In this document: piece by piece, positions 655 through 60,500 of the stretch | Layout: every line of letters starts with the position of its first letter | Position numbering within the stretch: the first letter of the stretch is position 1 | NCBI GenBank assembly: GCA_051313645.2 | Contig: JBNRSN020000028.1 | Location: forward strand, 14,694,001-14,758,000 | Direction of reading: 5' to 3' | Length of the DNA: 64,000 bases | From: Centroscyllium fabricii | Taxonomy: Eukaryota | Program-made: the position numbers and the translations under genes | The notes under the pieces: model-generated | Told to the model about the DNA's origin: nothing | Seen by the model: only the letters and a program-made list of their open reading frames with translations | Database searches by the model: none

Positions 655-655
655 A

Positions 656-669
656 TTTTAATTAATAAA
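656..669 (+). promoter_or_regulatory. Non-tRNA primer-binding site, complementary to LTR 583-596 (putative self-priming PBS)
   Basis: TTTTAATTAATAAA (656-669) is the exact reverse complement of TTTATTAATTAAAA (583-596); no TGG tRNA-type PBS between the LTR and the gag ATG at 677. Confidence 0.72.
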
Positions 670-676
670 TTTTACA

Positions 677-5216: not shown

Positions 5217-5414
5217 TATGTTGCTGGAGCCAGGTCAGCCACACCTCTGACTCCTCCCTCCAGGTGGAGCACCATAAAGGTATGAGCTGATCCTCCATTC
5301 ATTCTTTTCCTGTATGAATCTACCGAGGAGACACCTCTATTCTTTATTAATTAAAAGCCTAGTATTAACGGTAACTACGAGTCGTCTTTTAATTAAGTCT
5401 TCGACCTCGCTACA
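5154..5414 (+). repeat. 3' LTR (261 bp)
   Basis: Identical to 394-654; followed by TSD GTGGG. Confidence 0.98.
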
Positions 5415-37800: not shown

Positions 37801-37982
37801 CTTGTATTAGCAGCAGTCCGTGGTGAGGAGGGGATTGAGTGTGTTGTCAGTGTGTCTTGTATTAGCAGGGGTCCGTGTTGAGGAGGGGATTGAGTGTGTT
37901 GTCAGTGTGTCTTGTATTAGCAGGAGTCCGTGTTGAGGAGGGGATTGAGTGTGTTGTCAGTGTGTCTTGTATTAGCAGGAGT
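31884..37982 (+). repeat. 55-bp satellite array, segment 2
   Basis: Same monomer and orientation, resuming in register after the LINE tail. Confidence 0.99.
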
Positions 37983-38962
37983 TGTAACGTTGGGGTGTGG
38001 GGCCCAAATGCAAGACACTGATAAAACTGTCTAGGTCCTTAAATTCCTTTATATACAAAACTGTAATAAAAGACATACATACATACATTCAAAAAGTTAC
38101 AATACATAATTAAATGGCATACAAATAGTTAGAAACAGAAAACAGGTTCCTTTCCGAACTGGTACAAGACTTTCCTTTGTGCGTGGAATGATACTCAGTC
38201 AAGAGCATCATAGTGTTGTGAATTACATGTCCAACCCTGAGTACAGGTGGTAGAGAGAAAAGTCCAGGCTTTGAATTAGGAATACTCCCGAGTCCGCCCT
38301 ACAGCAGGGACGCACTCCAACGGAGTCTTCAGAGGAAGAATCCATCTTCACAAACAAGGAAACTCCCAACATACACTACTGAAATGACCAAACCTCAGTT
38401 CGGGTGATAACGACCAATGTCCAGGAAGTAGAACCAGGATTTCTTCAAAGTCCGCTCCACCGCGGGGACTCAACCCAACGGAGTTCACAGAACGAGAATA
38501 CGTGATCTACTTAGCAGGGAAACGCCCTTACTAAACTAATGGAATGTCCAAACCTGAGTTCAGGTGGTAGAGTGCAATGTCCAGAATGTAGACAACCGTA
38601 GTTCTCCGAAGTCCGCTCCACAGCTAAGACTCACTCTACCCGAGTTTCCAGAAGAGAATACATCATCTACAAGGCAGGGGAACGCCCAAACCCATTGCCT
38701 CTCCAGGAGCTCAGACAGCAACCACTCCTTCCAGTAGTTCGTAGTAATGAGTAGTAAGTAGAATGATCCGGCCACTGCCTGGTCTCAGCACCCAGCTTAT
38801 AAGCCGACTAGATAGATTAGTGCTAACCAATAAGAATGCAGGTATAGAGAACGAGGAACTCACAGGTATGTGCACAGGTAATTGAGGTATAATGAACCAA
38901 AACAGAGAACAAAACATAGAATTCCAAAATGGATTCCGTAAAGGGGAATGCCATCTGTGACA
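37983..38962 (-). repeat. 3' LTR (980 bp) of the non-autonomous element
   Basis: TG...CA termini with short imperfect inverted repeat; TATAAG near 38796-38803 on the minus strand; about 98% identical to 39129-40025 by eye. Confidence 0.88.
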
Positions 38963-39114
38963 GAACCCCCCCTCAAAGGACGACTGCTGACGTCCCAAGT
39001 ACCCAAATACCGAATAGGGTGGGTGGAGGGGTGCGGAGGAGGGACCAACCGTCCTACAGGAATAAAGTAATCCGAGGTGATCTAGACGCTTCAGTGTCTG
39101 CTGGGCCCCTATTC

Positions 39115-39128
39115 TGGCCGGATCATTC
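39115..39128 (-). promoter_or_regulatory. Self-priming PBS of the non-autonomous element
   Basis: Minus-strand (A)GAATGATCCGGCCA is the exact complement of minus-strand TGGCCGGATCATTCT at 39907-39921, which begins about 25 nt downstream of the TATA box at 39943-39950. Confidence 0.85.
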
Positions 39129-40025
39129 TGTAACGTTGGGGTGTGGGGCCCAAATGCAAGACACTGATAAAACTGTCTAGGTCCTTAATTTCCTTTATAT
39201 ACAAAACTGTAATAAAAGACATACATGCATACATTCAAAAAGTTACAATACATAATTAAATGGCATACAAATAGTTAGAAACAGAAAACAAGTTCCTTTC
39301 CGAACTGGTACAAGACTTTCCTTTGTGCGTGGAACCATACTCAGTCAAGAGCATCATAGTGTTGTGAATTACATGTCCAACCCTGAGTACAGGTGGTAGA
39401 GAGAAAAGTCCAGGCTGTTGAATTAGGAATACTCCCGAGTCCGCCCTACAGCAGGGACTCACTCCAACGGAGTCTTCAGAGGAAGAATCCATCTTCACAA
39501 ACAAGGAAACTCACCACATACACTACTGAAATGACCAAACCTCAGTTCGGGTGATAACGACCAATGTCCAGGAAGTAGAACCAGGATTTCTTCAAAGTCC
39601 GCTCCACCGCGGGGACTCAACCCAACGGAGTTCACAGAACGAGTATACATGATCTACTTAGCAGGGGAACGCCCTTACTAAACTAATGGAATGTCCAAAC
39701 CTGAGTTCAGGTGGTAGAGTGCAATGTCCAGAATGTAGACAACCGTAGTTCTCCGAAGTCCGCTCCACAGCTAAGACTCACTCTACCCGAGTTTCCAGAA
39801 GAGAATACATCATCTACAAGGCAGGGGAACGCCCAAACCCATTGCCTCTCCAGGAGCTCAGACAGCAACCACTCCTCCCAGTAGTTCGTAGTAATGAGTA
39901 GTAAGTAGAATGATCCGGCCACTGCCTGGTTTCAGCACACAGCTTATAAGCCGACTAGATAGACAATAAGAATGCAGGTATAGAGAACGAGGAACACACA
40001 GATATGTGCACAGGTAATTGAGGTA
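39129..40025 (-). repeat. 5' LTR, lacking its outer ~70 bp, abutting the Tx1 3' end
   Basis: Matches the other LTR up to ...GTAATTGAGGTA; carries an 11-bp deletion (TTAGTGCTAAC) relative to it. Confidence 0.88.
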
Positions 40026-43000
40026 CTTCTTTTGGTGAAAACGTTTGTACGGTTTATCTGTAAAGCAAAACTTTAGCTAATCCTAACAAATTAAATTAAA
40101 ATTTGGTTGACCGGGGTGACGATGCACTCCAATCCCCCCGGCGCCCATCGGTCGCGAAAAGCCTCAAGCGTACCGTCGGAAACCGCGTGCTCCATCTCCA
40201 GGGCCACCCGGGCGCGAACCTGGCCGCGAAAGAGAGGCAGGCAATCTGGCTGGACGACCCCCTCGACGGCCCACTGCCTGGACGAATAAATGGACCTTTT
40301 GGCAAGTCCCAGGAGCAGACCGACGAGGAGATCCTCCAACCTGCCCGCTCCCCTCCGCACCGGATGGCCGTAGATCAGGAGCGTGGGACTGAAGTGCAAC
40401 CAAAACTTGAGGAGCAGCCCCTTCAAATAATGATAGAAGGGCTGCAACCTCCCACATTCAACATAGACATGGAACACGGACTCTTCCAGCCCGCAGAAGT
40501 GACAGGTGGCCTGGGAGTCCGTGAACCGACTTAAAACCTTGTTGCACGGGGCTACTCCGTGCAACACTCTCCAGGCCAAGTCCCCAATATAACAGGGGAA
40601 GACTCCCGCGTAGAGAGCCCCCCATTGGGGACCTCTGCCTCCGCCGGATGGCAAAATGGCACGCCAAGGCGTGTCCGGACGGCAGGCGAAGATGGCAAAG
40701 TGGAAAGTGTGCAGGAGCAGCCCGTACAGAAAACGCCTCCGTGCGGTGTCAAAAGGCACGAAGGGCATCTCACCGAGACGGCTCAAGATGTGAGGCGCCG
40801 GTTCCCGAGAGGGGTTTCGGGTCGGGCGCCGATGAGGAATTCCGTCCGAACGGGGTTCAGCTCGGACGGGAGTACCCCACTTCTTTGAGCCGCCTCAATT
40901 CTCGTAGTGTAGTCAAGGCCCAACGCCACTTTCAGCGACTTGATGGCTTTGGTCGCGGGCCGGACGTTATCATGTCCCAGGCACTGCACCAGTTCCACAG
41001 GCGCCATCCAGCCCGCTCCTCCGCCATCAAGCAGGTCCCTGACTATAGTCACCCTGCCAGGCACAGCTCTATTCTCCGCCAGCCACCCGAACCCTCGGTC
41101 TTGGAGGTGCGTATTCCTGAGCAGCGGCTCTCAAAGGAGAGCCGACACTCCTGACGGGAGAGAGGTGCGCCTGGAGGCGACGCTGTTCCAAACACAAAGC
41201 AGTTCCTGGTAAAAGACAGGCAGCTCCCGCAGGCTTGCACGTGTACCGCTTATTTTCACAAACAGGAGCTGCGTGTCATAGTTGAGGCCGTGCAGCTGGC
41301 GGAAGAAATACGTCGCCAGCGCACACCATCTAGGAGGATCCTCGATGTACAGGTATCTCTGCAGCGTCTGAAGACGGAAAGTCGCCGCCTGGGTGCAGAG
41401 GCACACCAGCGCCTGACCGCCCTCCCTAAGCGGGAGATACAGAACCGCGGCGGAGACCCAGTGCTTCCTTTTGTCCCAGAAGAAGTCGATGAGCTTCTTC
41501 TGTAACCTGGCGACAAAATCAGGGGGAGGGATCAAAGTGACCAACCGGTACCACAACATGGCGGCCACCAGTTGGTTTGTGACTAGCGCTCGACCCCTGT
41601 AGGACAACACTCGGAGCAGTCCTGTCCAGCGCCCTAGCCGAGTGGTGACTTTGTCTTCCAACTCTTGCCAGTTCACCGGCCAGGCTTCCTCGGCTGGGCT
41701 GAGGTGGACTCCCAAGTAGAGGAGGTGCGTGGTGCTCCAGGCGAAACGCCTGAACTCCTCCGGCAGGGAGTCCACCCGCCACTGACCCACCAGGAGTCCG
41801 GAACATTTCTCCCAGTTGATCCTGGCGGAGGATGCGTCCGAGTAAATCTGCTGGCATTCTCGCATCCTCCGCAGGTCAGCGGGATCCGTGACCATGAGGA
41901 GCACGTCATCGGCGTAAGCCGAAAGGACGACCTCCACGCCCGGCCCTTGCAGAGCCAGTCCCGTCAACCTCTTCCGCAAGAGGCGCAGGAAAGGCTCCAC
42001 GCAAACGGCATATAACTGACCGGACATGGGGCATCCCTGACGTACCCCCCTCCCAAAGCGAAGGGGCGCCGTCAAAGACCCGTTAACTTTGATCAGACAC
42101 TCCACGGCAGCATACAAAAGTCAGATCCGGGCGACGAAATGCGTCCCGAACCCGAATGCGCGCAGAGTCCCAAAAAGGAACTCGTGATCCACCCTGTCAA
42201 ACGCCTTCTCCTGATCCAGGGAAAGGAAGGCGACCGACATACCAGCCCTCTGGGAATGTGGAGCAGGTCCCGGACCAGATGGATGTTGTCGTGGATTGAC
42301 CGGCCCAGGACCGTGTAGGACTGGTCAGAATGGATCATGTGGGCCAGCACGGTGCCAAGGCGGGCAGACATGGCCCTGGCAAAAATTTTGTAATCCGTGC
42401 TGAGGAGGGAGACCGGGCGCCAGTTTTTAAGTAGGCGGAGATCGCCCTTCTTTGGCAGCAGGACAATGACGGCCCTGCGCCACGAGAGGGGCATCTCCCC
42501 GGTCGCTAGACTTTCCCCCAGGACCCGCTGGTAATCACCCCCCAGGACGTCCCAGAACGCCCTGTGGAACTCCACGGTCAGCCCGTCCAGCCCCGGGGAC
42601 TTTCCCCTCGAGAGCTTGCCGAGGGCGCCGGTCAGCTCCGCCAGACTTAGCGGAGCGTCCAATTGTTCGGCGCCCTCCGGACTGACCTTCGGCAGGTCCT
42701 CCCACAAAACTCTACGCGCATCCTCGCTGGACGGATCCGGAGAGAACAGAGCCCCGTAAAAAGACCGGGTCTCCGCACTGATCCCCTCCGGATCCGAGAC
42801 CAGAGATCCGTCGTCGGCCAGCAGCATCAAAATCTGCTTATGGACCCCTCGCCTTTTTTCCAGCGAGTAGAAGAAGGGGGAGCCGCGGTCCAGATCCCGC
42901 AGGAACTGGATACGTGACCTCACGAACGCACCTCGGGACCCGACGAGCTGCAGGTCCTTCAGCGCGGCCTTCTTTTCTTCATACACCGTCCGCAGGGCCG

Positions 43001-43484
43001 GGTCCCCGACGACCTGACCGGGGCGGGACTCTAGGTCGAGCACTTCCTTCTCTAATCGCCCGACCTGAGCCTTGCACCCCTTGGTCGACCCCCTCGCGTA
43101 CTCCTGACAGAAGAGATGGACGTGAGCCTTGCCCACGTACCAGCATAGCCTCAAGGAGGGGAAGCCCCCCTGCTTCCTTCTCCAGTCGGCCCAGAACCGA
43201 CGGAACGAACCACGGAATCGCGCGTCCTCCAGCAGCAGGGAGCTCTGTCCACACCAGGTGGTGGTCCATGCACGGCACCGGCCACATGGAAGCCGCCCGA
43301 ACGCAGGAGACGTACGCCCGAGAAATGTAGAGGCGGTCGATTCGGGAGCCTCCTCCTCCAGGCCTCACGTGAGTGAAGGCGCTCGAGTCGGGATGGAGAT
43401 TCTGCCAGACGTCCACCAATTCGAAGGACCCGACCAGGTCCCTCAACTTCTCTGTCGCCGCCGGGCTGCGCAGGCGACCTGAAT
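40026..43484 (-). mobile_element. Tx1/L1-clade LINE, 5'-truncated within the endonuclease domain
   Basis: APE endonuclease motifs (LVDVW, SRIDRLY, DHHLV), RT motifs (KSPGLDGL, NWRPVSLL, GVRQGCPMS, YADD), C-terminal CHFC...H...C knuckle, ~65-nt 3' UTR. Confidence 0.93.
40091..43484 (-). pseudogene. Disrupted ORF2 (endonuclease/reverse transcriptase) of the Tx1-like LINE
   Basis: Split over ORFs 42979..43590, 42093..43154, 41131..42117, 40783..41064 and 40091..40786 by several frameshifts and a stop at 41131. Confidence 0.9.
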
Positions 43485-44526
43485 GGTCTTGTATTAGCAG
43501 GGTACGTGGTGAGATGTGGATTGAGTGTGTTGCCAGTGGGTCTTGTATTAGCAGGGTACGTGGTGAGGAGGGGATTGAGTGTGTTGGCAATGTGCCTTGT
43601 ATCAGCAGGAGTCCGTGGTGAGGAGGGGATTGAGCGTGTTGTCAGTGTGTCTTGTATTAGCAGGAGTCCGTGGTGAGGAGGGGATTGAGCGTGTTGTCAG
43701 TGTGTCTTGTATTAGCAGGAGTCCGTGGTAAGGAGGGGATTGAGTGTGCTGTCAGTGTGTCTTGTATTAGCAGGGGTCCGTGGTGAGGAGGGGATTGAGG
43801 GTGTTGTCAGTGTGTCTTGTATTAGCAGGAGTCCGTGGTGAGGAGGGGATTGAGTGTGTTGTCAGTGTGTCTTGTATTAGCAGGAGTCCGTGGTGAGGAG
43901 GAGATTGAGTGTGTTGTCAGTGTGTCTTTTATTAGCAGGGGTCCGTGTTGAGGAGGGGATTGAGTTTGTTGTCAGTGTGTCTTGTATTAGCAGGAGTCCG
44001 TGTTGAGGAGGGGATTGAGTGTGTTGTCAGTGTGTCTTGTATTAGAGGAGTCCGTGGTGAGATGGGGATTGAGTGTGTTGTCACTGTGACTTGTATTAGC
44101 AGGAGTCCGTGTTAAGGAGGGGATTGAGTGTGTTGCCAGTGGGTCTTGTATTAGCAGGATCCGTGGTGAGGAGGGGATTGAGTGTGTTGTCAGTGTGTCT
44201 TGTATCAACAGGTGTCCGTGGTGAGGAAGGGATTGAGTGTGTTGTCAGTGTGTCTTGTATCAGCAGGAGTCCGTGCTGAGGAGGGGATTGAGTGTGTTGT
44301 CAGTGTGTCTTGTATTAGCAGGAGTCCGTGGTGAGATGAGGATTGAGTGTGTTGCCAGTGGGTCTTGTATTAGCAGGGTACGTGGTGAGGAGGGGATTGA
44401 GTGTGTTGTCAGTGTGTCTTGTATTAGCAGAAGTCCGTGGTTAGGAGGGGATTGAGTGTGTTGTCAGTGTGTCTTGTATTAGCAGGGGTCCGTGGTGAGG
44501 AGGGGATTGTGTGTGTTGCCAGTGTG
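43485..44526 (+). repeat. 55-bp satellite array, segment 3
   Basis: Same monomer; copy of about 29847-30868 (offset 13658). Confidence 0.99.
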
Positions 44527-45541
44527 GGCAGAGTTAGGCCAATATCCACTACTATTTAAAATCCAAAAAAGAGCAATCAAATTCTGGAAACACCTAAAAC
44601 TGAGCAACCCTCACAGTTATCACTACAAAGCCCTGAAATGCCAAGAAGCGAACATAAAAAGAAGTCCCATCAACCAACTAGTCCTAGGACTTAGCGAAGT
44701 AACTAACAACACTACTGTTAACAACCAACTTAGCGGAAAAAACACTAACACTACTGGTAAAAACCAGCCCCTGGACAGTGACGCCCTAGCACTCAGAATC
44801 CGACCCAACACAATTATTACTCAACAAAAAGAAAAATACCTGAACTACTGGACAGAAACGACAAAAACCCAAAACAAACTAGATTGCTACTTGGCCCTAA
44901 ACAGACAGTACACCATGGCGGACTACCTGTCCATGGTGAAAGACAGCAAACTGAGAAAAACTCTGACAATGTACAGACTTTGCGAGCGCAGCCTAGCCAT
45001 CGAAAAAGGCAGACACAGAAAGACTTGGCTGCCCAGAGAGGAAAGGCTGTGCTCCCACTGCAGTCAGGGAGTGGTGGAGACAGAGCTGCACTTCCTCACA
45101 ACTTGCGAAAATTATCAGGGAATAAGGGGAAATTTCTTCCCAAAATTTGCAACAGCATGCCCTGAATTCAAAAATTTGACCGACCACCAGAAACTCCCAT
45201 ACCTACTAGGGGAACAGAGGGAATGTATAAAACTTGCGGCAAACTACGTCACAGCTTGCCATAAGCAGAGGGACAACCAGTGACCATTGACATTGAAGCT
45301 AGGATGAGCATACAAGCTCTATATGCGGGTATAAATGTACATGTGTGCGTAACTAATGTACGGTTGTCAATAAGTCTACTAATGTATTATTCTATGTAGT
45401 ACGTATACAAATGTATTATTCTTATGTATGTTAAAATGTTTTACTAATGTAATATTCTTATGTATGTTGCACTGCTTTGGCAACAACGGTTGATGCCATT
45501 CATGACAATAAAGCCTTTTGAATAGTGAATAGTGAATAGTG
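44527..45541 (+). mobile_element. RTE-X-like LINE fragment, copy 2 (duplicate of 30869-31883)
   Basis: Identical 5' and 3' junctions and flanking monomer variants; about 5 substitutions relative to copy 1. Confidence 0.88.
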
Positions 45542-48500
45542 TCTTGTATCAGCAGGGTCCGTGGTGAGGAGGGGATTGACTGTGTTGTCAGTGTGTCTTG
45601 TATTAGCAGGAGTCCGTGGTGAGGAGGAGATTGAGTGTGTTGTCAGTGTGTCTTGTATTAGCAGGGGTCCGTGTTGAGGAGGCGATTGAGTTTGTTGTCA
45701 GCGTGTCTTGTATTAGCCGGAGTCCGTGTTGAGGAGGGGATTGAGTGTGTTGTCAGTGTGTCTTGTATTAGAGGAGTCCGTGGTGAGATGGGGATTGAGT
45801 GTGTTGTCACTGTGTCTTGTATTAGCAGGAGTCCGTGTTAAGGAGGAAATTGAGTGTGTTGCCAGTGGATCTTGTATTAGCAGGCTCCGTGGTGAGGAGG
45901 GGATTGAGTGTGTTGTCAGTGTGTCTTGTATCAGCAGGTGTCCGTGGTGAGGAAGGGATTGAGTGTGTTGTCATTGTGGCTTGTAGTAGCAGGAGTCCGT
46001 GGTGAGGAGGGGATTGAGCGTGTTGTCAGTGTGTCTTGTATTAGCAGGAGTCCGTGTTGAGGAGGGGATTGAGTTTGTTGCCAGTGTGTCTTGTATCAGC
46101 AGGAGTCCGTGGTGAGGAGGGGATTGACTGTGTTGTCAGTGTGTCTTGTATTAGCAGGAGTCCGTGGTGAGATGAGGATTGAGTGTGTTGCCAGTGGGTC
46201 TTGTATTAGCAGGGTACGTGGTGAGGAGGGGATTGAGTGTGTTGTCAGTGTGTCTTGTATCAGCAGGAGTCCGTGGTGAGGAGGGGATTGAGCGTGTTGT
46301 CAGTGTGTCTTGTATTAGCAGGAGTCCGTGGTGAGGAGGGGATTGAGCGTGTTGTCAGTGTGTCTTGTATTAGCAGGAGTCCGTGGTAAGGAGGGGATTG
46401 AGTGTGCTGTCAGTGTGTCTTGTATTAGCAGGGGTCCGTGGTGATGATGGGATTGAGGGTGTTGTCAGTGTGTCTTGTATTAGCAGGAGTCCGTGGTGAG
46501 GAGGAGATTGAGTGTGTTGTCAGTGTGTCTTGTATTAGCAGGGGTCCGTGTTGAGGAGGGGATTGAGTTTGTTGTCAGTGTGTCTTGTATTAGCAGGAGT
46601 CCGTGTTGAGGAGGGGATTGAGTGTGTTGTCAGTGTGTCTTGTATTAGAGGAGTCCGTGGTGAGATGGGGATTGAGTGTGTTGTCACTGTGTCTTGTATT
46701 AGCAGGAGTCCGTGTTAAGGAGGGGATTGAGTGTGTTGCCAGTGGGTCTTGTATTAGCAGGGTCCGTGGTGGGGAGGGGATTGAGTGTGTTGTCAGTGTG
46801 TCTTGTGTGAGCAGGTGTCCGTGGTGAGGAAGGGATTGAGTGTGTTGTCAGTGTGTCTTGTAGTAGCAGGAGTCCGTGGTGAGGAGGGGATTGAGCGTGT
46901 TGTCAGTGTGTCTTGTATTAGCAGGAGTCCGTGTTGAGGAGGGGATTGAGTTTGTTGCCAGTGTGTCTTGTATCAGCAGGAGTCCGTGGTGAGGAGGGGA
47001 TTGAGTGTGTTGTCAGTGTGTCTTGTATTAGCAGGAGTCCGTGGTGAGATGAGGATTGAGTGTGTTGCCAGTGGGTCTTGTATTAGCAGGGTACGTGGTG
47101 AGGAGGGGATTGAGCGTGTTGTCAGTGTGTCTTGTATCAGCAGGAGTCCGTGGTGAGGAGGGGATTGAGCGTGTTGTCACTGTGTCTTGTATTAGCAGGA
47201 GTCCGTGGTGAGGAGGTGATTGAGCGTGTTGTCAGTGTGTCTTGTATTAGCAGGAGTCCGTGGTAAGGAGGGGATTGAGTGTGCTGTCAGTGTGTCTTGT
47301 ATTAGCAGGGGTCCGTGGTGAGGAGGGGATTGAGGGTGTTGTCAGTGTGTCTTGTATTAGCAGGAGTCCGTGGTGAGGAGGGGATTGAGTGTGTTGTCAG
47401 TGTGTCTTGTAATAGCAGGAGTCCGTGGTGAGTAGGAGATTGAGTGTGTTGTCAGTGTGTCTTGTATTAGCAGGGGTCCGTGTTGAGGAGCGGATTGAGT
47501 TTGTTGTCAGTGTGTCTTGTATTAGCAGGAGTCCGTGTTGAGGAGTGGATTGAGTATGTTGTCAGTGTGTCTTGTATTAGAGGAGTCCGTGGTGAGATGG
47601 GGATTGAGTGTGTTGTCACTGTGTCTTGTATTAGCAGGAGTCCGTGTTAAGGAGGGGATTGAGTGTGTTGCCAGTGGGTCTTGTATTAGCAGGATCCGTG
47701 GTGAGGAGGGCATTGAGTGTGTTGTCAGTGTGTCTTGTATCAACAGGTGTCCGTGGTGAGGAAGGGATTGAGTGTATTGTCAGTGTGTCTTGTATCAGCA
47801 GGAGTCCGTGATGAGGAGGGGATTGAGTGTGTTGTCAGTGTGTCTTGTATTAGCAGGAGTCCGTGGTGAGATGAGGATTGAGTGTGTTGCCAGTGGGTCT
47901 TGTATTAGCAGGGTACGTGGTGAGGAGGGGATTGAGTGTGTTGTCAGTGTGTCTTGTATTAGCAGGAGTCCGTGGTGAGGAGGCGATTGAGCGTGTTGTC
48001 AGTGTGTCTTGTATTAGCAGGAGTCCGTGGTTAGGAGGGGATTGAGTGTGTTGTCAGTGTGTCTTGTATTAGCAGGTGTCCGTGGTGAGGAGGGGATTGA
48101 GTGTGTTGTCAGTGTGTCTTCTATCAGCAGGAGTCCGTGGTGAGGAGGGGATTGAGTGTGTTGTCAGTGTGTCTTGTATTAGCAGGAGTCCGTGGTGAGA
48201 TGAGGATTGAGTGTGTTGCCAGTGGGTCTTGTATTAGCAGGGTACGTGGTGAGGAGGGGATTGAGTGTGTTGTCAGTGTGTCTTGTATCAGCAGGAGTCC
48301 GTGGTGAGGAGGGGATTGAGCGTGTTGTCAGTGTGTCTTGTATTAGCAGGAGTCCGTGGTGATAAGGCGATTGAGCGTGTTGTCAGTGTGTCTTGTATTA
48401 GCAGGAGTCCGTGGTTAGGAGGGGATTGAGTGTGTTGTCAGTGTGTCTTGTATTAGCAGGGGTCCGTGGTGAGGAGGGGATTGAGTGTGTTGTCAGTGTG

Positions 48501-51500
48501 TCTTGTATCAGCAGGGTCCGTGGTGAGGAGGGGATTGACTGTGTTGTCAGTGTGTCTTGTATTAGCAGTAGTCCGTGGTGAGGAGGAGATTGAGCGTGTT
48601 GTCAGTGTGTCTTGTATTAGAGGAGTCCGTGGTGAGATGGGGATTGAGTGTGTTGTCACTGTGTCTTGTATTAGCAGGAGTCCGTGTTAAGGAGGGGATT
48701 GAGTGTGTTGCCAGTGGGTCTTGTATTAGCAGGCTCCGTGGTGAGGAGGGGATTGAGTGTGTTGTCAGTGTGTCTTGTAGTAGCAGGAGTCCGTGGTGAG
48801 GAGGGGATTAAGCGTGTTGTCAGTGTGTCTTGTATTAGAAGGAGTCCGTGTTGAGGAGGGGATTGAGTTTGTTGCCAGTCTGTCTTGTATCAGCAGGAGT
48901 CCGTGGTGAGGAGGGGATTGACTGTGTTGTCAGTGTGTCTTGTATTAGCAGGAGTCCGTGGTGAGATGAGGATTGAGTGTGTTGCCAGTGGGTCTTGTAT
49001 TAGCAGGGTACGTGGTGAGGAGGGGATTGAGTGTGTTGTCAGTGTGTCTTCTATCAGCAGGTGTCCGTGGTGAGGAGGGTATTGAGCGTGTTGTCAGTGT
49101 GTCTTGTATTAGCAGGAGTCCGTGGTGAGGAGGGGATTGAGTGTGTTGTCAGTGTGTCTTGTATTAGCAGGAGTCCGTGGTGGGGAGGAGATTGAGTGTG
49201 TTGTCAGTGTGTCTTGTATCAGCAGGAGTCCGTGGTGAGGAGGGGACTGAGTGTGTTGTCAGTGTGTCTTGTATTAGCAGGAGTCCGTGGTGAGATGAGG
49301 ATTGAGTGTGTTGCCAGTGGGTCTTGTATTAGCAGGGTACGTGGTGAGGAGGGGATTGAGTGTGTTGTCAGTGTGTCTTGTATCAGCAGGAGTCCGTGGT
49401 GAGGAGGGGATTGAGCGTGTGGTCAGTGTGTCTTGTATTAGCAGGAGTCCGTGGTGAGGAGGCGATTGAGCGTGTTGTCAGTGTGTCTTGTATTAGCAGG
49501 AGTCCGTGGTGAGGAGGGGATTGAGTGTGTTGTCAGTGTGTCTTGTATCAGCAGGAGTCCGTGGTGAGGAGGGGATTGAGTGTGTTGTCAGTGTGTCTTG
49601 TATCAGCAGGAGTCCGTGGTGAGGAGGGGATTGAGTGTGTTGTCAGTGTGTCTTGTATTAGCAGGAGTCCGTGGTGAGATGAGGATTGAGTGTGTTGCCA
49701 GTGGGTCTTGTATTAGCAGGGTACGTGGTGAGGAGGGGATTGAGTGTGTTGTCAGTGTGTCTTGTATCAGCAGGAGTCCGTGGTGAGGAGGGGATTGAGC
49801 GTGTTGTCAGTGTGTCTTGTATTAGCAGGATTCCGTGGTGAGGAGGCGATTGAGCGTGTTGTCAGTGTGTCTTGTATTAGCAGGAGTCCGTGGCGAGGAG
49901 GGGATAAAGTGTGTTGTCAGTGTGTCTTGTATTAGCAGGAGTCCGTGGTTAGGAGGGGATTGAGTGTGTTGTCAGTGTGTCTTGTATTAGCAGGGGTCCG
50001 TGGTGAGGAGGGGATTGAGTGTGTTGCCAGTGGGTCTTGTATTAGCAGGGGTCCGTGGTGAGGAGGGGATTGAGCGTGTTGTCAGTGTGTCTTGTATTAG
50101 CAGGAGTCCGTGGTGAGGAGGGGATTGAGTGTGTTGTCAGTGTGTCTTGTATTAGCAGGGGTCCGTGGTGAGGAGAGGATTGAGTGTGTTGTCAGAGTGT
50201 CTTGTATTAGCAGGAGTCCGTGGTGAGCAGGGGATTGAGTGTGTTGTCAGTGTGTCTTGTATCAGCAGGGTCCGTGGTGAGGAGGGGATTGAGTGTGTTG
50301 TCAGTGTGTCTTGTATTAGTAGGGGTCCGTGGTGAGGAGGTGATTGAGTGTGTTGTCAGTGTGCCTTGTATTAGCAGGGTCCGTGGTGAGATGGGGATTG
50401 AGTGTGTTGTCAGTGTGTCTTGTATTAGCAGGAGTCCGTGGTGAGCAGGGGATTGAGTGTGTTGTCAGTGTGTCTTGTATCAGCAGGGTCCGTGGTGAGG
50501 AGGCGATTGAGTGTGTTGTCAGTGTGTCTTGTATTAGTAGGGGTCCGTGGTGAGGAGGTGATTGAGTGTGTTGTCAGTGTGCCTTGTATTAGCAGGGTCC
50601 GTGGTGAGATGGGGATTGAGTGTGTTGTCAGTGTGTCTTCTATTAGCAGGAGTCCATGGTGAGGAGGGGATTGAGTGTGTTGCCAGTGGGTCTTGTATTA
50701 GCAGGGTCCGTGGTGAGGAAGTGATTGAGTGTGTTGCCAGTGGGTCTTGTATCAGCAGGGGTCCGTGGTGAGGGGCGGATTGAGTGTGTTGTAAGTGTGT
50801 CTTGCATTAGCAGGAGTCCGTGGTGAGGAGGGGATTGAGTGTGTTGTCAGTGTGTCTTGTATTATCAGGGGTCCGTGGTGAGGAGGGGATTGAGGGTGTT
50901 GTCAGTGTGTCTTGTATTAGCAGGAGTCCGTGGCGAGGAGGGGATTAAGTGTGTTGTCAGTGTGTCTTGTATTAGCAGGAGTCCGTGGTTAGGAGGGGAT
51001 TGAGTGTGTTGTCAGTGTGTCTTGTATTAGCAGTGGTCCGTGGTGAGGAGGGGATTGAGTGTGTTGTCAGTGTGTCTTGTATCAGCAGGGTCCGTGGTGA
51101 GGAGGGGATTGAGTGTGTTGTCAGTGTGTCTTCTATTAGCAGGAGTCCGTGGTGAGGAGGAGATTGAGTGTGTTGTCAGTGTGTCTTGTATTAGCAGGAG
51201 TCCGTGGTGAGGAGGGGATTGAGTGTGTTGTCAGTGTGTCTTGTATTAGCAGGAGTCCGTGGTGGGGAGGGGATTGAGTGTGTTGTCAGTGTGTCTTGTA
51301 TCAGCAGGAGTCCGTGGTGAGGAGGGGATTGAGTGTGTTGTCAGTGTGTCTTGTATTAGCAGGAGTCCGTGGTGAGATGAGGATTGAGTGTGTTGCCAGT
51401 GGGTCTTGTATTAGCAGGGTACGTGGTGATGAGGGGATTGAGTGTGTTGTCAGTGTGTCTTGTATCAGCAGGAGTCCGTGGTGAGGAGGGGATTGAGCGT

Positions 51501-54500
51501 GTTGTCAGTGTGTCTTGTATTAGCAGGAGTCCGTGGTGAGGAGGCGATTGAGCGTGTTGTCAGTGTGTCTTGTATTAGCAGGAGTCCGTGGTGAGGAGGG
51601 GATTGAGTGTGTTGTCAGTGTGTCTTGTATCAGCAGGAGTCCGTGGTGAGGAGGGGATTGAGTGTGTTGTCAGTGTGTCTTGTATCAGCAGGAGTCCGTG
51701 GTGAGGAGGGGATTGAGTGTGTTGTCAGTGTGTCTTGTATTAGCAGGAGTCCGTGGTGAGATGAGGATTGAGTGTGTTGCCAGTGGGTCTTGTATTAGCA
51801 GGGTACGTGGTGAGGAGGGGATTGAGTGTGTTGTCAGTGTGTCTTGTGTCAGCAGGAGTCCGTGGTGAGGAGGGGATTGAGCGTGTTGTCAGTGTGTCTT
51901 GTATTAGCAGGAGTCCGTGGTGAGGAGGCGATTGAGCGTGTTGTCAGTGTGTCTTGTATTAGCAGGAGTCCGTGGCGAGGAGGGGATAAAGTGTGTTGTC
52001 AGTGTGTCTTGTATTAGCAGGAGTCCGTGGTTAGGAGGGGATTGTGTGTGTTGTCAGTGTGTCTTGTATTAGCAGGGGTCCGTGGTGAGGAATGGATTGA
52101 GTGTGTTGCCAGTGGGTCTTGTATTAGCAGGGGTCCGTGGTGAGGAGGGGATTGAGCGTGTTGTCCGTGTGTCTTGTATTAGCAGGTGTCCGTGGTGAGG
52201 AGGGGATTGAGTGTGTTGTCAGTGTGTCTTGTATTAGCAGGGGTCCGTGGTGAGGAGAGGGTTGAGTGTGTTGTCAGAGTGTCTTGTATTAGCAGGAGTC
52301 CGTGGTGAGCAGGGGATTGAGTGTGTTGTCAGTGTGTCTTGTATCAGCAGGATCCGTGGTGAGGAGGGGATTGAGTGTGTTGTCAGTGTGTCTTGTATTA
52401 GCAGGGTCCGTGGTGAGGAGGCGATTGAGTGTGTTGTCAGTGTGTCTTGTATTAGTAGGAGTCCGTGGTGAGGAGGTGATTGAGTGTGTTGTCAGTGTGT
52501 CTTGTATTAGCAGGGTCCGTGGTGAGATGGGGATTGAGTGTGTTGTCAGTGTGTCTTCTATTAGCAGGAGTCCATGGTGAGGAGGGGATTGAGTGTGTTG
52601 TCAGTGTGTCTTGTATTAGCAGGAGTCCGTGGTGAGATGAGGATTGAGTGTGTTGCCAGTGGGTCTTGTATTAGCAGGGTAGGTGGTGAGGAGGGGATTG
52701 AGTGTGTTGTCAGTGTGTCTTGTATTAGCAGGAGTCCGTGGTGAGGAGGCGATTGAGCGTGTTGTCAGTGTGTCTTGTATTAGCAGGAGTCCGTGGTTAG
52801 GAGGGGATTGAGTGTGTTGTCAGTGTGTCTTGTATTAGCAGGTGTCCGTGGTGAGGAGGGGATTGAGTGTGTTGTCAGTGTGTCTTCTATCAGCAGGAGT
52901 CCGTGGTGAGGAGGGGATTGAGTGTGTTGTCAGTGTGTCTTGTATTAGCAGGAGTCCGTGGTGAGATGAGGATTGAGTGTGTTGCCAGCGGGTCTTGTAT
53001 TAGCAGGGTACGTGGTGAGGAGGGGATTGAGTGTGTTGTCAGTGTGTCTTGTATCAGCAGGAGTCCGTGGTGAGGAGGGGATTGAGCGTGTTGTCAGTGT
53101 GCCTTGTATTAGCAGGAGTCCGTGGTGATAAGGCGATTGAGCGTGTTGTCAGTGTGTCTTGTATTAGCAGGAGTCCGTGGTTAGGAGGGGATTGAGTGTG
53201 TTGTCAGTGTGTCTTGTATTAGCAGGGGTCCGTGGTGAGGAGGGGATTGAGTGTGTTGTCAGTGTGTCTTGTATCAGCAGGGTCCGTGGTGAGGAGGGGA
53301 TTGACTGTGTTGTCAGTGTGTCTTGTATTAGCAGTAGTCCGTGGTGAGGAGGAGATTGAGCGTGTTGTCAGTGTGTCTTGTATTAGAGGAGTCCGTGGTG
53401 AGATGGGGATTGAGTGTGTTGTCACTGTGTCTTGTATTAGCAGGAGTCCGTGTTAAGGAGGGGATTGAGTGTGTTGCCAGTGGGTCTTGTATTAGCAGGC
53501 TCCGTGGTGAGGAGGGGATTGAGTGTGTTGTCAGTGTGTCTTGTAGTAGCAGGAGTCCGTGGTGAGGAGGGGATTAAGCGTGTTGTCAGTGTGTCTTGTA
53601 TTAGAAGGAGTCCGTGTTGAGGAGGGGATTGAGTTTGTTGCCAGTGTGTCTTGTATCAGCAGGAGTCCGTGGTGAGGAGGGGATTGACTGTGTTGTCAGT
53701 GTGTCTTGTATTAGCAGGAGTCCGTGGTGAGATGAGGATTGAGTGTGTTGCCAGTGGGTCTTGTATTAGCAGGGTACGTGGTGAGGAGGGGATTGAGTGT
53801 GTTGTCAGTGTGTCTTCTATCAGCAGGTGTCCGTGGTGAGGAGGGGATTGAGCGTGTTGTCAGTGTGTCTTGTATTAGCAGGAGTCCGTGGTGAGGAGGG
53901 GATTGAGTGTGTTGTCAGTGTGTCTTGTATTAGCAGGAGTCCGTGGTGGGGAGGAGATTGAGTGTGTTGTCAGTGTGTCTTGTATCAGCAGGAGTCCGTG
54001 GTGAGGAGGGGACTGAGTGTGTTGTCAGTGTGTCTTGTATTAGCAGGAGTCCGTGGTGAGATGAGGATTGAGTGTGTTGCCAGTGGGTCTTGTATTAGCA
54101 GGGTACGTGGTGAGGAGGGGATTGAGTGTGTTGTCAGTGTGTCTTGTATCAGCAGGAGTCCGTGGTGAGGAGGGGATTGAGCGTGTTGTCAGTGTGTCTT
54201 GTATTAGCAGGAGTCCGTGGTGAGGAGGCGATTGAGCGTGTTGTCAGTGTGTCTTGTATTAGCAGGAGTCCGTGGTGAGGAGGGGATTGAGTGTGTTGTC
54301 AGTGTGTCTTGTATCAGCAGGAGTCCGTGGTGAGGAGGGGATTGAGTGTGTTGTCAGTGTGTCTTGTATCAGCAGGAGTCCGTGGTGAGGAGGGGATTGA
54401 GTGTGTTGTCAGTGTGTCTTGTATTAGCAGGAGTCCGTGGTGAGATGAGGATTGAGCGTGTTGTCAGTGTGTCTTGTATTAGCAGGAGTCCGTGGTTAGG

Positions 54501-57500
54501 AGGGGATTGAGTGTGTTGTCAGTGTGTCTTGTATTAGCAGGGGTCCGTGGTGAGGAGGGGATTGAGTGTGTTGTCAGTGTGTCTTGTATCAGCAGGGTCC
54601 GTGGTGAGGAGGGGATTGACTGTGTTGTCAGTGTGTCTTGTATTAGCAGTAGTCCGTGGTGAGGAGGAGATTGAGCGTGTTGTCAGTGTGTCTTGTATTA
54701 GAGGAGTCCGTGGTGAGATGGGGATTGAGTGTGTTGTCACTGTGTCTTGTATTAGCAGGAGTCCGTGTTAAGGAGGGGATTGAGTGTGTTGCCAGTGGGT
54801 CTTGTATTAGCAGGCTCCGTGGTGAGGAGGGGATTGAGTGTGTTGTCAGTGTGTCTTGTAGTAGCAGGAGTCCGTGGTGAGGAGGGGATTAAGCGTGTTG
54901 TCAGTGTGTCTTGTATTAGAAGGAGTCCGTGTTGAGGAGGGGATTGAGTTTGTTGCCAGTCTGTCTTGTATCAGCAGGAGTCCGTGGTGAGGAGGGGATT
55001 GACTGTGTTGTCAGTGTGTCTTGTATTAGCAGGAGTCCGTGGTGAGATGAGGATTGAGTGTGTTGCCAGTGGGTCTTGTATTAGCAGGGTACGTGGTGAG
55101 GAGGGGATTGAGTGTGTTGTCAGTGTGTCTTCTATCAGCAGGTGTCCGTGGTGAGGAGGGTATTGAGCGTGTTGTCAGTGTGTCTTGTATTAGCAGGAGT
55201 CCGTGGTGAGGAGGGGATTGAGTGTGTTGTCAGTGTGTCTTGTATTAGCAGGAGTCCGTGGTGGGGAGGAGATTGAGTGTGTTGTCAGTGTGTCTTGTAT
55301 CAGCAGGAGTCCGTGGTGAGGAGGGGACTGAGTGTGTTGTCAGTGTGTCTTGTATTAGCAGGAGTCCGTGGTGAGATGAGGATTGAGTGTGTTGCCAGTG
55401 GGTCTTGTATTAGCAGGGTACGTGGTGAGGAGGGGATTGAGTGTGTTGTCAGTGTGTCTTGTATCAGCAGGAGTCCGTGGTGAGGAGGGGATTGAGCGTG
55501 TGGTCAGTGTGTCTTGTATTAGCAGGAGTCCGTGGTGAGGAGGCGATTGAGCGTGTTGTCAGTGTGTCTTGTATTAGCAGGAGTCCGTGGTGAGGAGGGG
55601 ATTGAGTGTGTTGTCAGTGTGTCTTGTATCAGCAGGAGTCCGTGGTGAGGAGGGGATTGAGTGTGTTGTCAGTGTGTCTTGTATCAGCAGGAGTCCGTGG
55701 TGAGGAGGGGATTGAGTGTGTTGTCAGTGTGTCTTGTATTAGCAGGAGTCCGTGGTGAGATGAGGATTGAGTGTGTTGCCAGTGGGTCTTGTATTAGCAG
55801 GGTACGTGGTGAGGAGGGGATTGAGTGTGTTGTCAGTGTGTCTTGTATCAGCAGGAGTCCGTGGTGAGGAGGGGATTGAGCGTGTTGTCAGTGTGTCTTG
55901 TATTAGCAGGATTCCGTGGTGAGGAGGCGATTGAGCGTGTTGTCAGTGTGTCTTGTATTAGCAGGAGTCCGTGGCGAGGAGGGGATAAAGTGTGTTGTCA
56001 GTGTGTCTTGTATTAGCAGGAGTCCGTGGTTAGGAGGGGATTGAGTGTGTTGTCAGTGTGTCTTGTATTAGCAGGGGTCCGTGGTGAGGAGGGGATTGAG
56101 TGTGTTGCCAGTGGGTCTTGTATTAGCAGGGGTCCGTGGTGAGGAGGGGATTGAGCGTGTTGTCAGTGTGTCTTGTATTAGCAGGAGTCCGTGGTGAGGA
56201 GGGGATTGAGTGTGTTGTCAGTGTGTCTTGTATTAGCAGGGGTCCGTGGTGAGGAGAGGATTGAGTGTGTTGTCAGAGTGTCTTGTATTAGCAGGAGTCC
56301 GTGGTGAGCAGGGGATTGAGTGTGTTGTCAGTGTGTCTTGTATCAGCAGGGTCCGTGGTGAGGAGGGGATTGAGTGTGTTGTCAGTGTGTCTTGTATTAG
56401 TAGGGGTCCGTGGTGAGGAGGTGATTGAGTGTGTTGTCAGTGTGCCTTGTATTAGCAGGGTCCGTGGTGAGATGGGGATTGAGTGTGTTGTCAGTGTGTC
56501 TTGTATTAGCAGGAGTCCGTGGTGAGCAGGGGATTGAGTGTGTTGTCAGTGTGTCTTGTATCAGCAGGGTCCGTGGTGAGGAGGCGATTGAGTGTGTTGT
56601 CAGTGTGTCTTGTATTAGTAGGGGTCCGTGGTGAGGAGGTGATTGAGTGTGTTGTCAGTGTGCCTTGTATTAGCAGGGTCCGTGGTGAGATGGGGATTGA
56701 GTGTGTTGTCAGTGTGTCTTCTATTAGCAGGAGTCCATGGTGAGGAGGGGATTGAGTGTGTTGCCAGTGGGTCTTGTATTAGCAGGGTCCGTGGTGAGGA
56801 AGTGATTGAGTGTGTTGCCAGTGGGTCTTGTATCAGCAGGGGTCCGTGGTGAGGGGCGGATTGAGTGTGTTGTAAGTGTGTCTTGCATTAGCAGGAGTCC
56901 GTGGTGAGGAGGGGATTGAGTGTGTTGTCAGTGTGTCTTGTATTATCAGGGGTCCGTGGTGAGGAGGGGATTGAGGGTGTTGTCAGTGTGTCTTGTATTA
57001 GCAGGAGTCCGTGGCGAGGAGGGGATTAAGTGTGTTGTCAGTGTGTCTTGTATTAGCAGGAGTCCGTGGTTAGGAGGGGATTGAGTGTGTTGTCAGTGTG
57101 TCTTGTATTAGCAGTGGTCCGTGGTGAGGAGGGGATTGAGTGTGTTGTCAGTGTGTCTTGTATCAGCAGGGTCCGTGGTGAGGAGGGGATTGAGTGTGTT
57201 GTCAGTGTGTCTTCTATTAGCAGGAGTCCGTGGTGAGGAGGAGATTGAGTGTGTTGTCAGTGTGTCTTGTATTAGCAGGAGTCCGTGGTGAGGAGGGGAT
57301 TGAGTGTGTTGTCAGTGTGTCTTGTATTAGCAGGAGTCCGTGGTGGGGAGGGGATTGAGTGTGTTGTCAGTGTGTCTTGTATCAGCAGGAGTCCGTGGTG
57401 AGGAGGGGATTGAGTGTGTTGTCAGTGTGTCTTGTATTAGCAGGAGTCCGTGGTGAGATGAGGATTGAGTGTGTTGCCAGTGGGTCTTGTATTAGCAGGG

Positions 57501-60500
57501 TACGTGGTGATGAGGGGATTGAGTGTGTTGTCAGTGTGTCTTGTATCAGCAGGAGTCCGTGGTGAGGAGGGGATTGAGCGTGTTGTCAGTGTGTCTTGTA
57601 TTAGCAGGAGTCCGTGGTGAGGAGGCGATTGAGCGTGTTGTCAGTGTGTCTTGTATTAGCAGGAGTCCGTGGTGAGGAGGGGATTGAGTGTGTTGTCAGT
57701 GTGTCTTGTATCAGCAGGAGTCCGTGGTGAGGAGGGGATTGAGTGTGTTGTCAGTGTGTCTTGTATCAGCAGGAGTCCGTGGTGAGGAGGGGATTGAGTG
57801 TGTTGTCAGTGTGTCTTGTATTAGCAGGAGTCCGTGGTGAGATGAGGATTGAGTGTGTTGCCAGTGGGTCTTGTATTAGCAGGGTACGTGGTGAGGAGGG
57901 GATTGAGTGTGTTGTCAGTGTGTCTTGTGTCAGCAGGAGTCCGTGGTGAGGAGGGGATTGAGCGTGTTGTCAGTGTGTCTTGTATTAGCAGGAGTCCGTG
58001 GTGAGGAGGCGATTGAGCGTGTTGTCAGTGTGTCTTGTATTAGCAGGAGTCCGTGGCGAGGAGGGGATAAAGTGTGTTGTCAGTGTGTCTTGTATTAGCA
58101 GGAGTCCGTGGTTAGGAGGGGATTGTGTGTGTTGTCAGTGTGTCTTGTATTAGCAGGGGTCCGTGGTGAGGAATGGATTGAGTGTGTTGCCAGTGGGTCT
58201 TGTATTAGCAGGGGTCCGTGGTGAGGAGGGGATTGAGCGTGTTGTCCGTGTGTCTTGTATTAGCAGGTGTCCGTGGTGAGGAGGGGATTGAGTGTGTTGT
58301 CAGTGTGTCTTGTATTAGCAGGGGTCCGTGGTGAGGAGAGGGTTGAGTGTGTTGTCAGAGTATCTTGTATTAGCAGGAGTCCGTGGTGAGCAGGGGATTG
58401 AGTGTGTTGTCAGTGTGTCTTGTATCAGCAGGATCCGTGGTGAGGAGGGGATTGAGTGTGTTGTCAGTGTGTCTTGTATTAGCAGGGTCCGTGGTGAGGA
58501 GGCGATTGAGTGTGTTGTCAGTGTGTCTTGTATTAGTAGGAGTCCGTGGTGAGGAGGTGATTGAGTGTGTTGTCAGTGTGTCTTGTATTAGCAGGGTCCG
58601 TGGTGAGATGGGGATTGAGTGTGTTGTCAGTGTGTCTTCTATTAGCAGGAGTCCATGGTGAGGAGGGGATTGAGTGTGTTGTCAGTGTGTCTTGTATTAG
58701 CAGGAGTCCGTGGTGAGATGAGGATTGAGTGTGTTGCCAGTGGGTCTTGTATTAGCAGGGTAGGTGGTGAGGAGGGGATTGAGTGTGTTGTCAGTGTGTC
58801 TTGTATTAGCAGGAGTCCGTGGTGAGGAGGCGATTGAGCGTGTTGTCAGTGTGTCTTGTATTAGCAGGAGTCCGTGGTTAGGAGGGGATTGAGTGTGTTG
58901 TCAGTGTGTCTTGTATTAGCAGGTGTCCGTGGTGAGGAGGGGATTGAGTGTGTTGTCAGTGTGTCTTCTATCAGCAGGAGTCCGTGGTGAGGAGGGGATT
59001 GAGTGTGTTGTCAGTGTGTCTTGTATTAGCAGGAGTCCGTGGTGAGATGAGGATTGAGTGTGTTGCCAGCGGGTCTTGTATTAGCAGGGTACGTGGTGAG
59101 GAGGGGATTGAGTGTGTTGTCAGTGTGTCTTGTATCAGCAGGAGTCCGTGGTGAGGAGGGGATTGAGCGTGTTGTCAGTGTGCCTTGTATTAGCAGGAGT
59201 CCGTGGTGATAAGGCGATTGAGCGTGTTGTCAGTGTGTCTTGTATTAGCAGGAGTCCGTGGTTAGGAGGGGATTGAGTGTGTTGTCAGTGTGTCTTGTAT
59301 TAGCAGGGGTCCGTGGTGAGGAGGGGATTGAGTGTGTTGTCAGTGTGTCTTGTATCAGCAGGGTCCGTGGTGAGGAGGGGATTGACTGTGTTGTCAGTGT
59401 GTCTTGTATTAGCAGTAGTCCGTGGTGAGGAGGAGATTGAGCGTGTTGTCAGTGTGTCTTGTATTAGAGGAGTCCGTGGTGAGATGGGGATTGAGTGTGT
59501 TGTCACTGTGTCTTGTATTAGCAGGAGTCCGTGTTAAGGAGGGGATTGAGTGTGTTGCCAGTGGGTCTTGTATTAGCAGGCTCCGTGGTGAGGAGGGGAT
59601 TGAGTGTGTTGTCAGTGTGTCTTGTAGTAGCAGGAGTCCGTGGTGAGGAGGGGATTAAGCGTGTTGTCAGTGTGTCTTGTATTAGAAGGAGTCCGTGTTG
59701 AGGAGGGGATTGAGTTTGTTGCCAGTGTGTCTTGTATCAGCAGGAGTCCGTGGTGAGGAGGGGATTGACTGTGTTGTCAGTGTGTCTTGTATTAGCAGGA
59801 GTCCGTGGTGAGATGAGGATTGAGTGTGTTGCCAGTGGGTCTTGTATTAGCAGGGTACGTGGTGAGGAGGGGATTGAGTGTGTTGTCAGTGTGTCTTCTA
59901 TCAGCAGGTGTCCGTGGTGAGGAGGGGATTGAGCGTGTTGTCAGTGTGTCTTGTATTAGCAGGAGTCCGTGGTGAGGAGGGGATTGAGTGTGTTGTCAGT
60001 GTGTCTTGTATTAGCAGGAGTCCGTGGTGGGGAGGAGATTGAGTGTGTTGTCAGTGTGTCTTGTATCAGCAGGAGTCCGTGGTGAGGAGGGGACTGAGTG
60101 TGTTGTCAGTGTGTCTTGTATTAGCAGGAGTCCGTGGTGAGATGAGGATTGAGTGTGTTGCCAGTGGGTCTTGTATTAGCAGGGTACGTGGTGAGGAGGG
60201 GATTGAGTGTGTTGTCAGTGTGTCTTGTATCAGCAGGAGTCCGTGGTGAGGAGGGGATTGAGCGTGTTGTCAGTGTGTCTTGTATTAGCAGGAGTCCGTG
60301 GTGAGGAGGCGATTGAGCGTGTTGTCAGTGTGTCTTGTATTAGCAGGAGTCCGTGGTGAGGAGGGGATTGAGTGTGTTGTCAGTGTGTCTTGTATCAGCA
60401 GGAGTCCGTGGTGAGGAGGGGATTGAGTGTGTTGTCAGTGTGTCTTGTATCAGCAGGAGTCCGTGGTGAGGAGGGGATTGAGTGTGTTGTCAGTGTGTCT

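Follow-up and report, generated by a model that had tools for sequence, protein, structure and literature searches.

A gene-less LTR family with a predicted self-primer, and a site-specific Tx1-type LINE that splits its 5' LTR, in Centroscyllium fabricii

A 64,000-nt stretch of Centroscyllium fabricii DNA, referred to here as the window, carries a miniature LTR element (the 'mini' element) on its minus strand. Very probably, this element belongs to a gene-less LTR family that uses the enzymes of a sushi-type chromovirus and primes itself with 11 bases, and its 5' LTR has been split by a site-specific Tx1-type LINE that duplicates the predicted promoter. The LINE that targets the mini element is the more surprising part of this arrangement.

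About 50 kb of the window consists of a 55-bp satellite with four non-satellite stretches between; the features of the split element are collected in Table 1. A search of the window for tRNA genes found none, and comparison of the mini element with Rfam gave no match. The window also contains, at 394-5414, a full-length Gypsy-type element with 261-bp LTRs, a GTGGG duplication and the RT motif YLDN, but without a chromodomain. The initial annotation took this for another tRNA-independent element. A 14-nt PBS complement does exist (583-596); however, it is AT-rich, overlaps ATTAAA and lies ~70 nt below the nearest TATA-like word, which is not the geometry of Tf1 and leaves the proposal doubtful.

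Table 1. Features of the split mini element and its surroundings, by position in the window
Feature	Position	Strand	Remark
Right-hand 5-bp target duplication ACTCC, in 55-bp satellite	37978..37982	-	ACTCC also stands ahead of the LTR start, outside the window (L279:4576-4572)
3' LTR, 980 bp, TGTCACA...CGTTACA	37983..38962	-	TATA at LTR nt 162; poly(A)-like TATAAA at nt 910
Non-coding interior, 166 bp	38963..39128	-	Three pieces of a Gag-PR-chromodomain relative
Polypurine tract (PPT) GAGGGGGGG	38966..38974	-	Same position in relatives
Predicted U5-leader RNA stem around the PBS	39079..39183	-	Predicted 3' arm is the 'decayed gag start'
11-nt primer-binding site (PBS) AATGATCCGGC	39117..39127	-	One base after the LTR end
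Downstream part of 5' LTR (LTR nt 74-980)	39129..40025	-	16 substitutions and 2 indels relative to 3' LTR
~160-bp unit, 2.9 copies, inside R	39373..39834	-	Single copy in helper LTR
Predicted 11-nt self-primer GCCGGATCATT	39909..39919	-	Predicted transcription start 39919
TATA box (TATAAG)	39943..39948	-	29 nt above the primer
3' half of Tx1-type LINE	40026..43485	-	Joined to LTR nt 74 at its 3' end; this copy has a broken ORF2
55-bp satellite block, 21.1 kb, inside Tx1	43486..64000	.	Runs 600 bp past the window end; Tx1 5' half and LTR nt 1 to ~410 lie beyond

The mini family, its parent and its helper

The mini element was originally described as a 980-bp LTR and a truncated partner flanking 166 bp, with more than 90% of its length in LTR. 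The 980-bp 3' LTR, the 166-bp interior and the high LTR content (92% by length) are all borne out. The partner, however, is not truncated but split by Tx1, and the rest of it lies just beyond the window. Most of the large size of the LTR is due to tripling of the ~160-bp unit in R. The interior is assembled from nt 1-56 (PBS and gag start), nt 46-72 (protease region) and nt 74-163 (3' UTR and PPT), and its first joint falls in an 11-nt near-identical overlap. A PPT had been expected in the interior and is present, but the sequence that accompanies it, which had been read as a pol terminus, is the 3' UTR that follows the parent's stop codon and not pol coding sequence. The gag-like start had been read as MDPADTEA. 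The parent frame instead reads MDPA(D/E)TLKRLEHL, and sister subfamilies keep its ATG where this copy has ATA.

Copies of the element are numerous in the 7.2 Gb of genome searched. An interior of 163-166 nt at 96-100% identity is found in 40 of 40 scored loci (2186 candidates). The exact 29-nt LTR/interior junction has 139 genome matches and the exact promoter motif has 5143; copies and LTRs, respectively, are at least this numerous, and the latter number includes the duplicates made by Tx1. Among 45 loci that were inspected for target duplications, both ends are in view for 24, and 22 of these carry 5-bp duplications of 21 different sequences. One of the other two has a 6-bp duplication, and the last was mis-scored by the script, though it has 5 bp in a separate comparison. 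These copies, with their common interior and distinct duplications, make it virtually inconceivable that the interior arose as a one-off deletion after insertion. In all measured pairs but one, the two LTRs are 2-17 substitutions apart. Total lengths are 1.8-2.5 kb. Among subfamilies, the LTR measures 970-1155 bp and the interior 166-171 bp, and both tandem arrays and interior-less LTRs occur. The evidence supports the kind of parasite first proposed: an LTR family, mobile but non-autonomous, that derives from a sushi-type chromovirus and has a self-priming geometry like that of Tf1.

A search with a PBS plus ATG pattern recovers 13 loci of an intermediate family, ten of which were examined. 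These elements are 2.9-3.1 kb long, with LTRs of 464-579 bp and an interior of mostly 1973 bp. They carry one 623-aa ORF, open in four of the ten, that encodes only Gag, protease and a chromodomain. RT, RNase H, the integrase core and the zinc knuckle are missing, and the integrase chromodomain is fused in frame. The deletion joint has 268 genome matches. The mini interior corresponds to three pieces of this intermediate element at 88-90% identity; it is less close to the autonomous copy that was tested, in which the middle piece has no match. The dN/dS of the intermediate frame against an autonomous copy is 0.19-0.32, and among 16 open intermediate frames it is 0.41 for shared variants and 0.99 for singletons. 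The low values indicate that the frame was under purifying selection.

Among 103 homologues is one unnamed protein that has the same domains but different joints. The nearest named Gag-PR homologues are fish proteins labelled PEG10/RTL1-like. The protease region at L045:2181-2600 is up to 76% identical to bony-fish proteins, which is high for the likely host distance. Intermediate copies (for example, in the flanks of L041, L044 and L053) frequently lie within other Gypsy and CR1-like elements or are broken up by them. Within the 3' LTR of another intermediate element there is an LTR that is 72-81% like that of the mini element (L051:3480-4505).

Two candidates for the autonomous helper were rejected. 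The 13 PBS plus ATG loci lack RT, RNase H and the integrase core, and hits to Pfam SH3_Tf2-1 lead to distant, decayed elements with 57-73% amino acid identity over the chromodomain. The likely helper is a 5.6-kb autonomous chromovirus with gag and a PR-RT-RH-IN-SH3-chromodomain frame. Its Pol matches the Pfam domains RVT_1, RT_RNaseH, rve, SH3_Tf2-1 and Chromo, and its best solved relative is Ty3. All 150 scored matches to its RT are at least 98% alike, and both frames are open in 9 of 15 copies examined. This element is favored as helper because it shares termini and PPT with the mini element and has a near-identical PBS. The expectation that the helper would share the mini LTR does not hold, since the helper LTR is related but different (~540 bp, and 70-78% alike only in patches). 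This divergence, together with differences at 2 of 11 primer bases, means that a closer helper than the sampled one may exist. The family as sampled has three tiers: the autonomous element of 5.6 kb, the RT-less Gag-PR-chromodomain element of 2.9-3.1 kb and the mini element of ~2.1 kb.

The predicted self-primer and the structure around the PBS

The initial annotation proposed a 15-nt PBS that pairs with both LTRs ~25 nt below the TATA box, and placed the RNA start at 39921-39924. A perfect 15-nt complement is present in this copy (39115-39129 with 39907-39921 and 38760-38774). However, the length of the match is copy-specific, with 15 nt at 4 of 30 loci and 13 nt at 15 of 30. Bases on both sides vary and only the 11 nt of GCCGGATCATT / AATGATCCGGC are conserved, which moves the predicted start to 39919. 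The 11-nt core begins 29 nt, not ~25 nt, below TATAAG, and does so in all three related families. Such a core is not a chance match, turning up in 2 of 20,000 LTR shuffles. From these comparisons we infer that the RNA starts at 39919 and that its first 11 bases serve as its own primer.

The three families carry related primer/PBS pairs. The mini pair (GCCGGATCATT/AATGATCCGGC) is perfect in 36 of 46 cases, and the autonomous pair (GCCAGATCGTT/AACGATCTGGC) in 14 of 16. In the intermediate family, where the pair is GCCGGATCGTT/AACGATCCGGC or GCCAGATCGTT/AACGATCTGGC, the match is perfect in 16 of 38, a share that is lowered by ten loci pre-selected with a CpG-decayed PBS. Across the three families, primer position 4 is G-C in 72, A-T in 22 and other in 6 of 100 cases, so that 94 are Watson-Crick. 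Position 9 is A-T in 45, G-C in 40, G-T in 12 and other in 3, or 85 of 100 Watson-Crick. Covariation at position 4 is also found inside the intermediate family (p 5e-4). Since the loci are related to one another, overlap in a few cases and include ten that were pre-selected, and since both covarying sites are CpG, the covariation counts as support for the pairing and not as a test of independent events. An apparent G-U wobble at position 9 was discarded because the search pattern had selected copies with a CpG-decayed PBS; unselected copies have G-C.

Pairing of primer and PBS is predicted with low probability in seven of eight whole-leader folds (mean p 0.00-0.22 in five mini folds, 0.01 in one intermediate fold, and 0.98 and 0.05 in two autonomous folds). 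Insertion of the primer into the loop of the stem described below would form a pseudoknot, which is beyond the folding program. These values thus neither support nor exclude self-priming.

The low predicted pairing, like the 13- and 15-nt matches, would also fit priming by a host RNA or by a longer primer of 13-15 nt, with the complement surviving as a relic from the parent. We give this alternative only a slim chance. The 11 bases are fixed across subfamilies, in contrast to bases 12-13 and -1/-2, which change freely, and Tf1 is described as using an 11-base primer that RNase H cuts from the start of its RNA (PMC7175516, in the part consulted). The PBS lacks the TGG with which tRNA sites start, and primer and PBS show two-sided changes across families.

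The PBS is framed by a predicted stem in which U5 pairs with interior nt 20-50 (-42.3 kcal/mol, z -4.44, equalled in 0 of 200 shuffles). With the PBS held open, the mean energy of this stem is -41 for 44 mini sequences, compared with -25 and -26 for 28 and 15 relatives. The two mini arms reach -44 with each other and -28 to -35 with parental arms. When the pairing is imposed on 35 of the 87 sequences, 87% of cells pair, versus 27-41% in slid controls. Changes on both sides occur in 3 of 30 stem pairs, which is no more than in shuffles (438/500), while paired cells and score lie above all shuffles. Covariation in the stem is accordingly modest. The former gag start appears, in these models, to be one arm of the stem. 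In another mini copy, an inverted interior sequence in U5 (L003:1411-1484) extends the predicted stem to -63.6 kcal/mol; it looks like the product of template-switch copying between the arms.

A replication scheme can be outlined for the preferred reading, in which the mini RNA primes itself. Transcription would begin at 39919, and the U5-leader stem would hold the PBS open. The helper's RNase H would cut after base 11, by analogy with Tf1, and the helper's integrase would make the 5-bp duplication.

A Tx1-type LINE at a single site of the LTR

The LINE that splits the 5' LTR is, judging from the look of its ORF2 and 3' end, probably of the Tx1 type. It has an ORF1 with a zinc knuckle and an ORF2 with APE endonuclease and RT. 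The window copy might be taken for a 5'-truncated insertion or a local deletion, but its 5' half is located beyond the satellite. LTR nt 1 to ~410 and the Tx1 5' half lie 0.6-4.6 kb past the window end (L279:601-4571), and ACTCC flanks the whole split element at both ends. The 21.1-kb satellite block entered Tx1 after the Tx1 insertion, with the loss of 2-3 bases. Two LINE 3' fragments of 1012 bp each, at 30869-31880 and 44527-45538, are 99.5% identical. Satellite around the second of them (43505-48008) matches the outer array at an offset of 13,658, so that part of the block was likely copied from the neighboring array.

A sister duplicate of this insertion is found in a separate satellite patch 146 kb away, at ~14.88 Mb (L243). 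Here an intact Tx1 lies within a single LTR, ACTCC stands at either end and the interior has been lost. Its status was settled by the left flank (10 mismatches in 927 nt), with which the same ACTCC and the same 9-nt deletion agree; Tx1 identity and the right flank are uninformative.

The Tx1/LTR joint at 40026/40025 is common to 40 of 40 scored loci. A pattern built from the Tx1 tail only has 107 matches. Among the 30 of these loci listed, the mini LTR follows the Tx1 3' end every time, from nt 74 in 29 and from nt 77 in one. LINEs are classed as target-specific when the same target occupies more than 20% of flanks (PMC4494074, in the part consulted), and here it occupies 30 of 30. Tracing 20 loci 10 kb upstream reveals LTR nt 1 to ~410-430 followed by a 7.0-kb Tx1 in 16, while the remaining four are interrupted and have their 5' ends out of view.

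When loci are instead picked by ORF2 similarity, the 30 obtained comprise 3 at mini nt 74, 3 at nt 74 or ~84 of related LTRs, and 24, often in tandem, whose tails and targets are different. Because these relatives at other targets have ORF2 ends that are 98% identical, site specificity holds for the tail-defined subfamily only. Between target groups, the endonuclease differs at 3-22 of 240 residues. This finding gives no support to RNA-guided target choice by identical endonucleases, which had been considered, and is in line with the role of the endonuclease in setting LINE targets (PMC1950540, in the part consulted). Young sister subfamilies with different tails and targets (L323-L341, and tandem runs on C613, C224 and C446) are often arranged head-to-tail with a spacing of ~7.4 kb. 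In another Tx1 subfamily (8 copies), which has a TATA 42-47 nt below the junction, no duplicate was found within the examined stretch.

Insertion of Tx1 duplicates LTR nt 74 to ~410, or ~340 bp that include the TATA box and the predicted start site. The origin of the two copies was examined at 29 full-length loci, after four tandem or rearranged loci were dropped and one could not be parsed. Rare target alleles recur in the upstream copy of the same locus in 233 of 240 cases over nt 74-190 (shuffled mean 61, maximum 129), 99 of 149 over nt 191-260 (shuffled mean 36), 27 of 39 over nt 261-330 (shuffled mean 13) and 47 of 86 in distal R, nt 331-405 (shuffled mean 34, maximum 48). Mismatch between the duplicates is 0.72% before nt 190 and 1.6% after it, a step (p 8e-4) that coincides with the predicted start site. 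High recurrence in U3 that falls in distal R, combined with this step, indicates that U3 with its TATA box is copied from the target. Distal R of the upstream copy likely derives from Tx1 RNA. Upstream copies have distal alleles in common (nt 390, 391, 395 and 405) that their respective targets do not carry, and in 25 of 29 the LTR sequence ends at one shared joint, beyond which comes a piece of R from the parental LTR. Over its next 52 nt, the Tx1 leader is 85% like R of the helper LTR, which is likely a trace of an earlier host LTR.

A simpler explanation would be a very long staggered cut of ~340 bp with no RNA homology, in which case Tx1 would have an internal promoter. The good agreement of the duplicates well into R at many loci (nt 191-330) fits such a cut, and the rotifer element R9 reportedly makes a 126-bp target duplication. 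Even so, we regard a plain cut as improbable. Against it stand the shared alleles missing from their own targets, the common joint into parental R, the mismatch step at the predicted start site and the full length of 16 of 20 Tx1 copies.

The composites might also have spread as DNA, by segmental duplication or recombination from one or few old insertions. Although this copy and L243 are duplicates of that kind, the idea is largely refuted as a general account, and we hold it to be very unlikely. The host LTRs come from several subfamilies, differ in their flanks, carry duplications of their own and are variously 5', inner or interior-less. Tx1 tail variants combine with different LTR variants, and tandem Tx1 elements occur at a regenerated site (L241, L246).

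The duplication could arise as follows if, as we prefer, an RNA leader is involved. The Tx1 endonuclease would nick the LTR at nt 73/74. Tx1 RNA, having started at the LTR start site, would carry R sequence, and the end of its cDNA could then anneal to the matching stretch of R that lies downstream of the nick. Repair would duplicate U3 with the TATA box, so that every full-length Tx1 insertion would acquire a new promoter without depriving the host LTR of its own.

Relation to known elements and meaning

The mini element resembles members of the Tf1/sushi group (Tf1, Tf2, Tj1 and vertebrate sushi elements), for which self-priming is reported also in vertebrates, in having an 11-nt PBS complementary to the predicted RNA start (PMC7175516, PMC6317226, PMC4600332, each in the part consulted). 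Its LTR ends fit the Sushi motifs TGTYANR / CNTNACA (PMC3601003, Table 3), and its helper has a Ty3/Gypsy pol with a chromodomain integrase. It differs in having no coding capacity and in the ~780 nt that separate primer and PBS, compared with ~375 nt in the helper.

The mini element and TRIMs have several features in common: two LTRs, an interior that is short and non-coding and bears a PBS and a PPT, duplications of 5 bp, tandem arrays and interior-less LTRs (PMC10886601, PMC6934838, both in the parts consulted). TRIMs are, however, described as shorter than 1000 bp (PMC10886601). The initial label of a TRIM-like element with unusually large LTRs therefore fits how the element works, but its size keeps it from being filed as a TRIM. 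For the vertebrate TRIM Helenus, tRNA primers have been reported, in contrast to the predicted self-primer here. Plant TR-GAG and other semi-autonomous LTR families keep Gag and protease and lack RT, RNase H and the integrase core. The intermediate family shares this content but differs from TR-GAG in its 623-aa frame, lost zinc knuckle, fused chromodomain and animal host.

Known target-specific Tx1 LINEs, such as Tx1L of Xenopus (in Tx1D), crocodilian Tx1-8_Crp and Tx1-4_AMi (in LTR retrotransposons) and Keno, likewise combine APE endonuclease and RT in ORF2 and insert into other transposons; a single-base U3 target with a ~340-bp duplication over TATA and predicted start, as found here, is not given for any of them in the consulted part of PMC4494074. 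At the 5' joint, the proposed model shares with R1/R2 a target-derived RNA leader, a cDNA that anneals and primes the second strand, and reliance on transcription of the target (PMC2718515, in the part consulted). In R1/R2, the homology lies upstream of the nick and yields a precise join or a small deletion (PMC2718515), whereas in the Tx1 model it would lie downstream and the promoter would be duplicated. A search of mainly open-access literature found no report of a self-priming non-autonomous vertebrate family or of a Tx1 that duplicates an LTR promoter.

The mini family is an expected extension, in that it brings Tf1-type priming geometry to a vertebrate non-autonomous element. The covariation adds comparative support for an 11-nt primer, and the family illustrates how a gag start that no longer codes can be retained, and reinforced, as predicted RNA structure. 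Of greater consequence is the Tx1 part. The joining of LINE 5' ends and the source of transcription of promoter-poor LINEs are open questions, and dozens of natural Tx1 insertions indicate which part of the duplication came from the target and which from RNA. Related endonucleases with different single-site targets provide a ready series for the study of LINE target choice.

On balance, we lean toward a four-level stack. An autonomous chromovirus would support both a selected Gag-protease-chromodomain family and the gene-less mini family, and a promoter-less Tx1 would prey on the mini LTR, regenerating its promoter at every full-length insertion through an LTR-derived RNA leader that anneals downstream of the nick. 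Sister Tx1 subfamilies, with a few endonuclease changes, would behave likewise at other LTR families, and an earlier host LTR would be recorded in the leader. If this is true, these elements form a natural series in which to follow target switching by site-specific LINEs.
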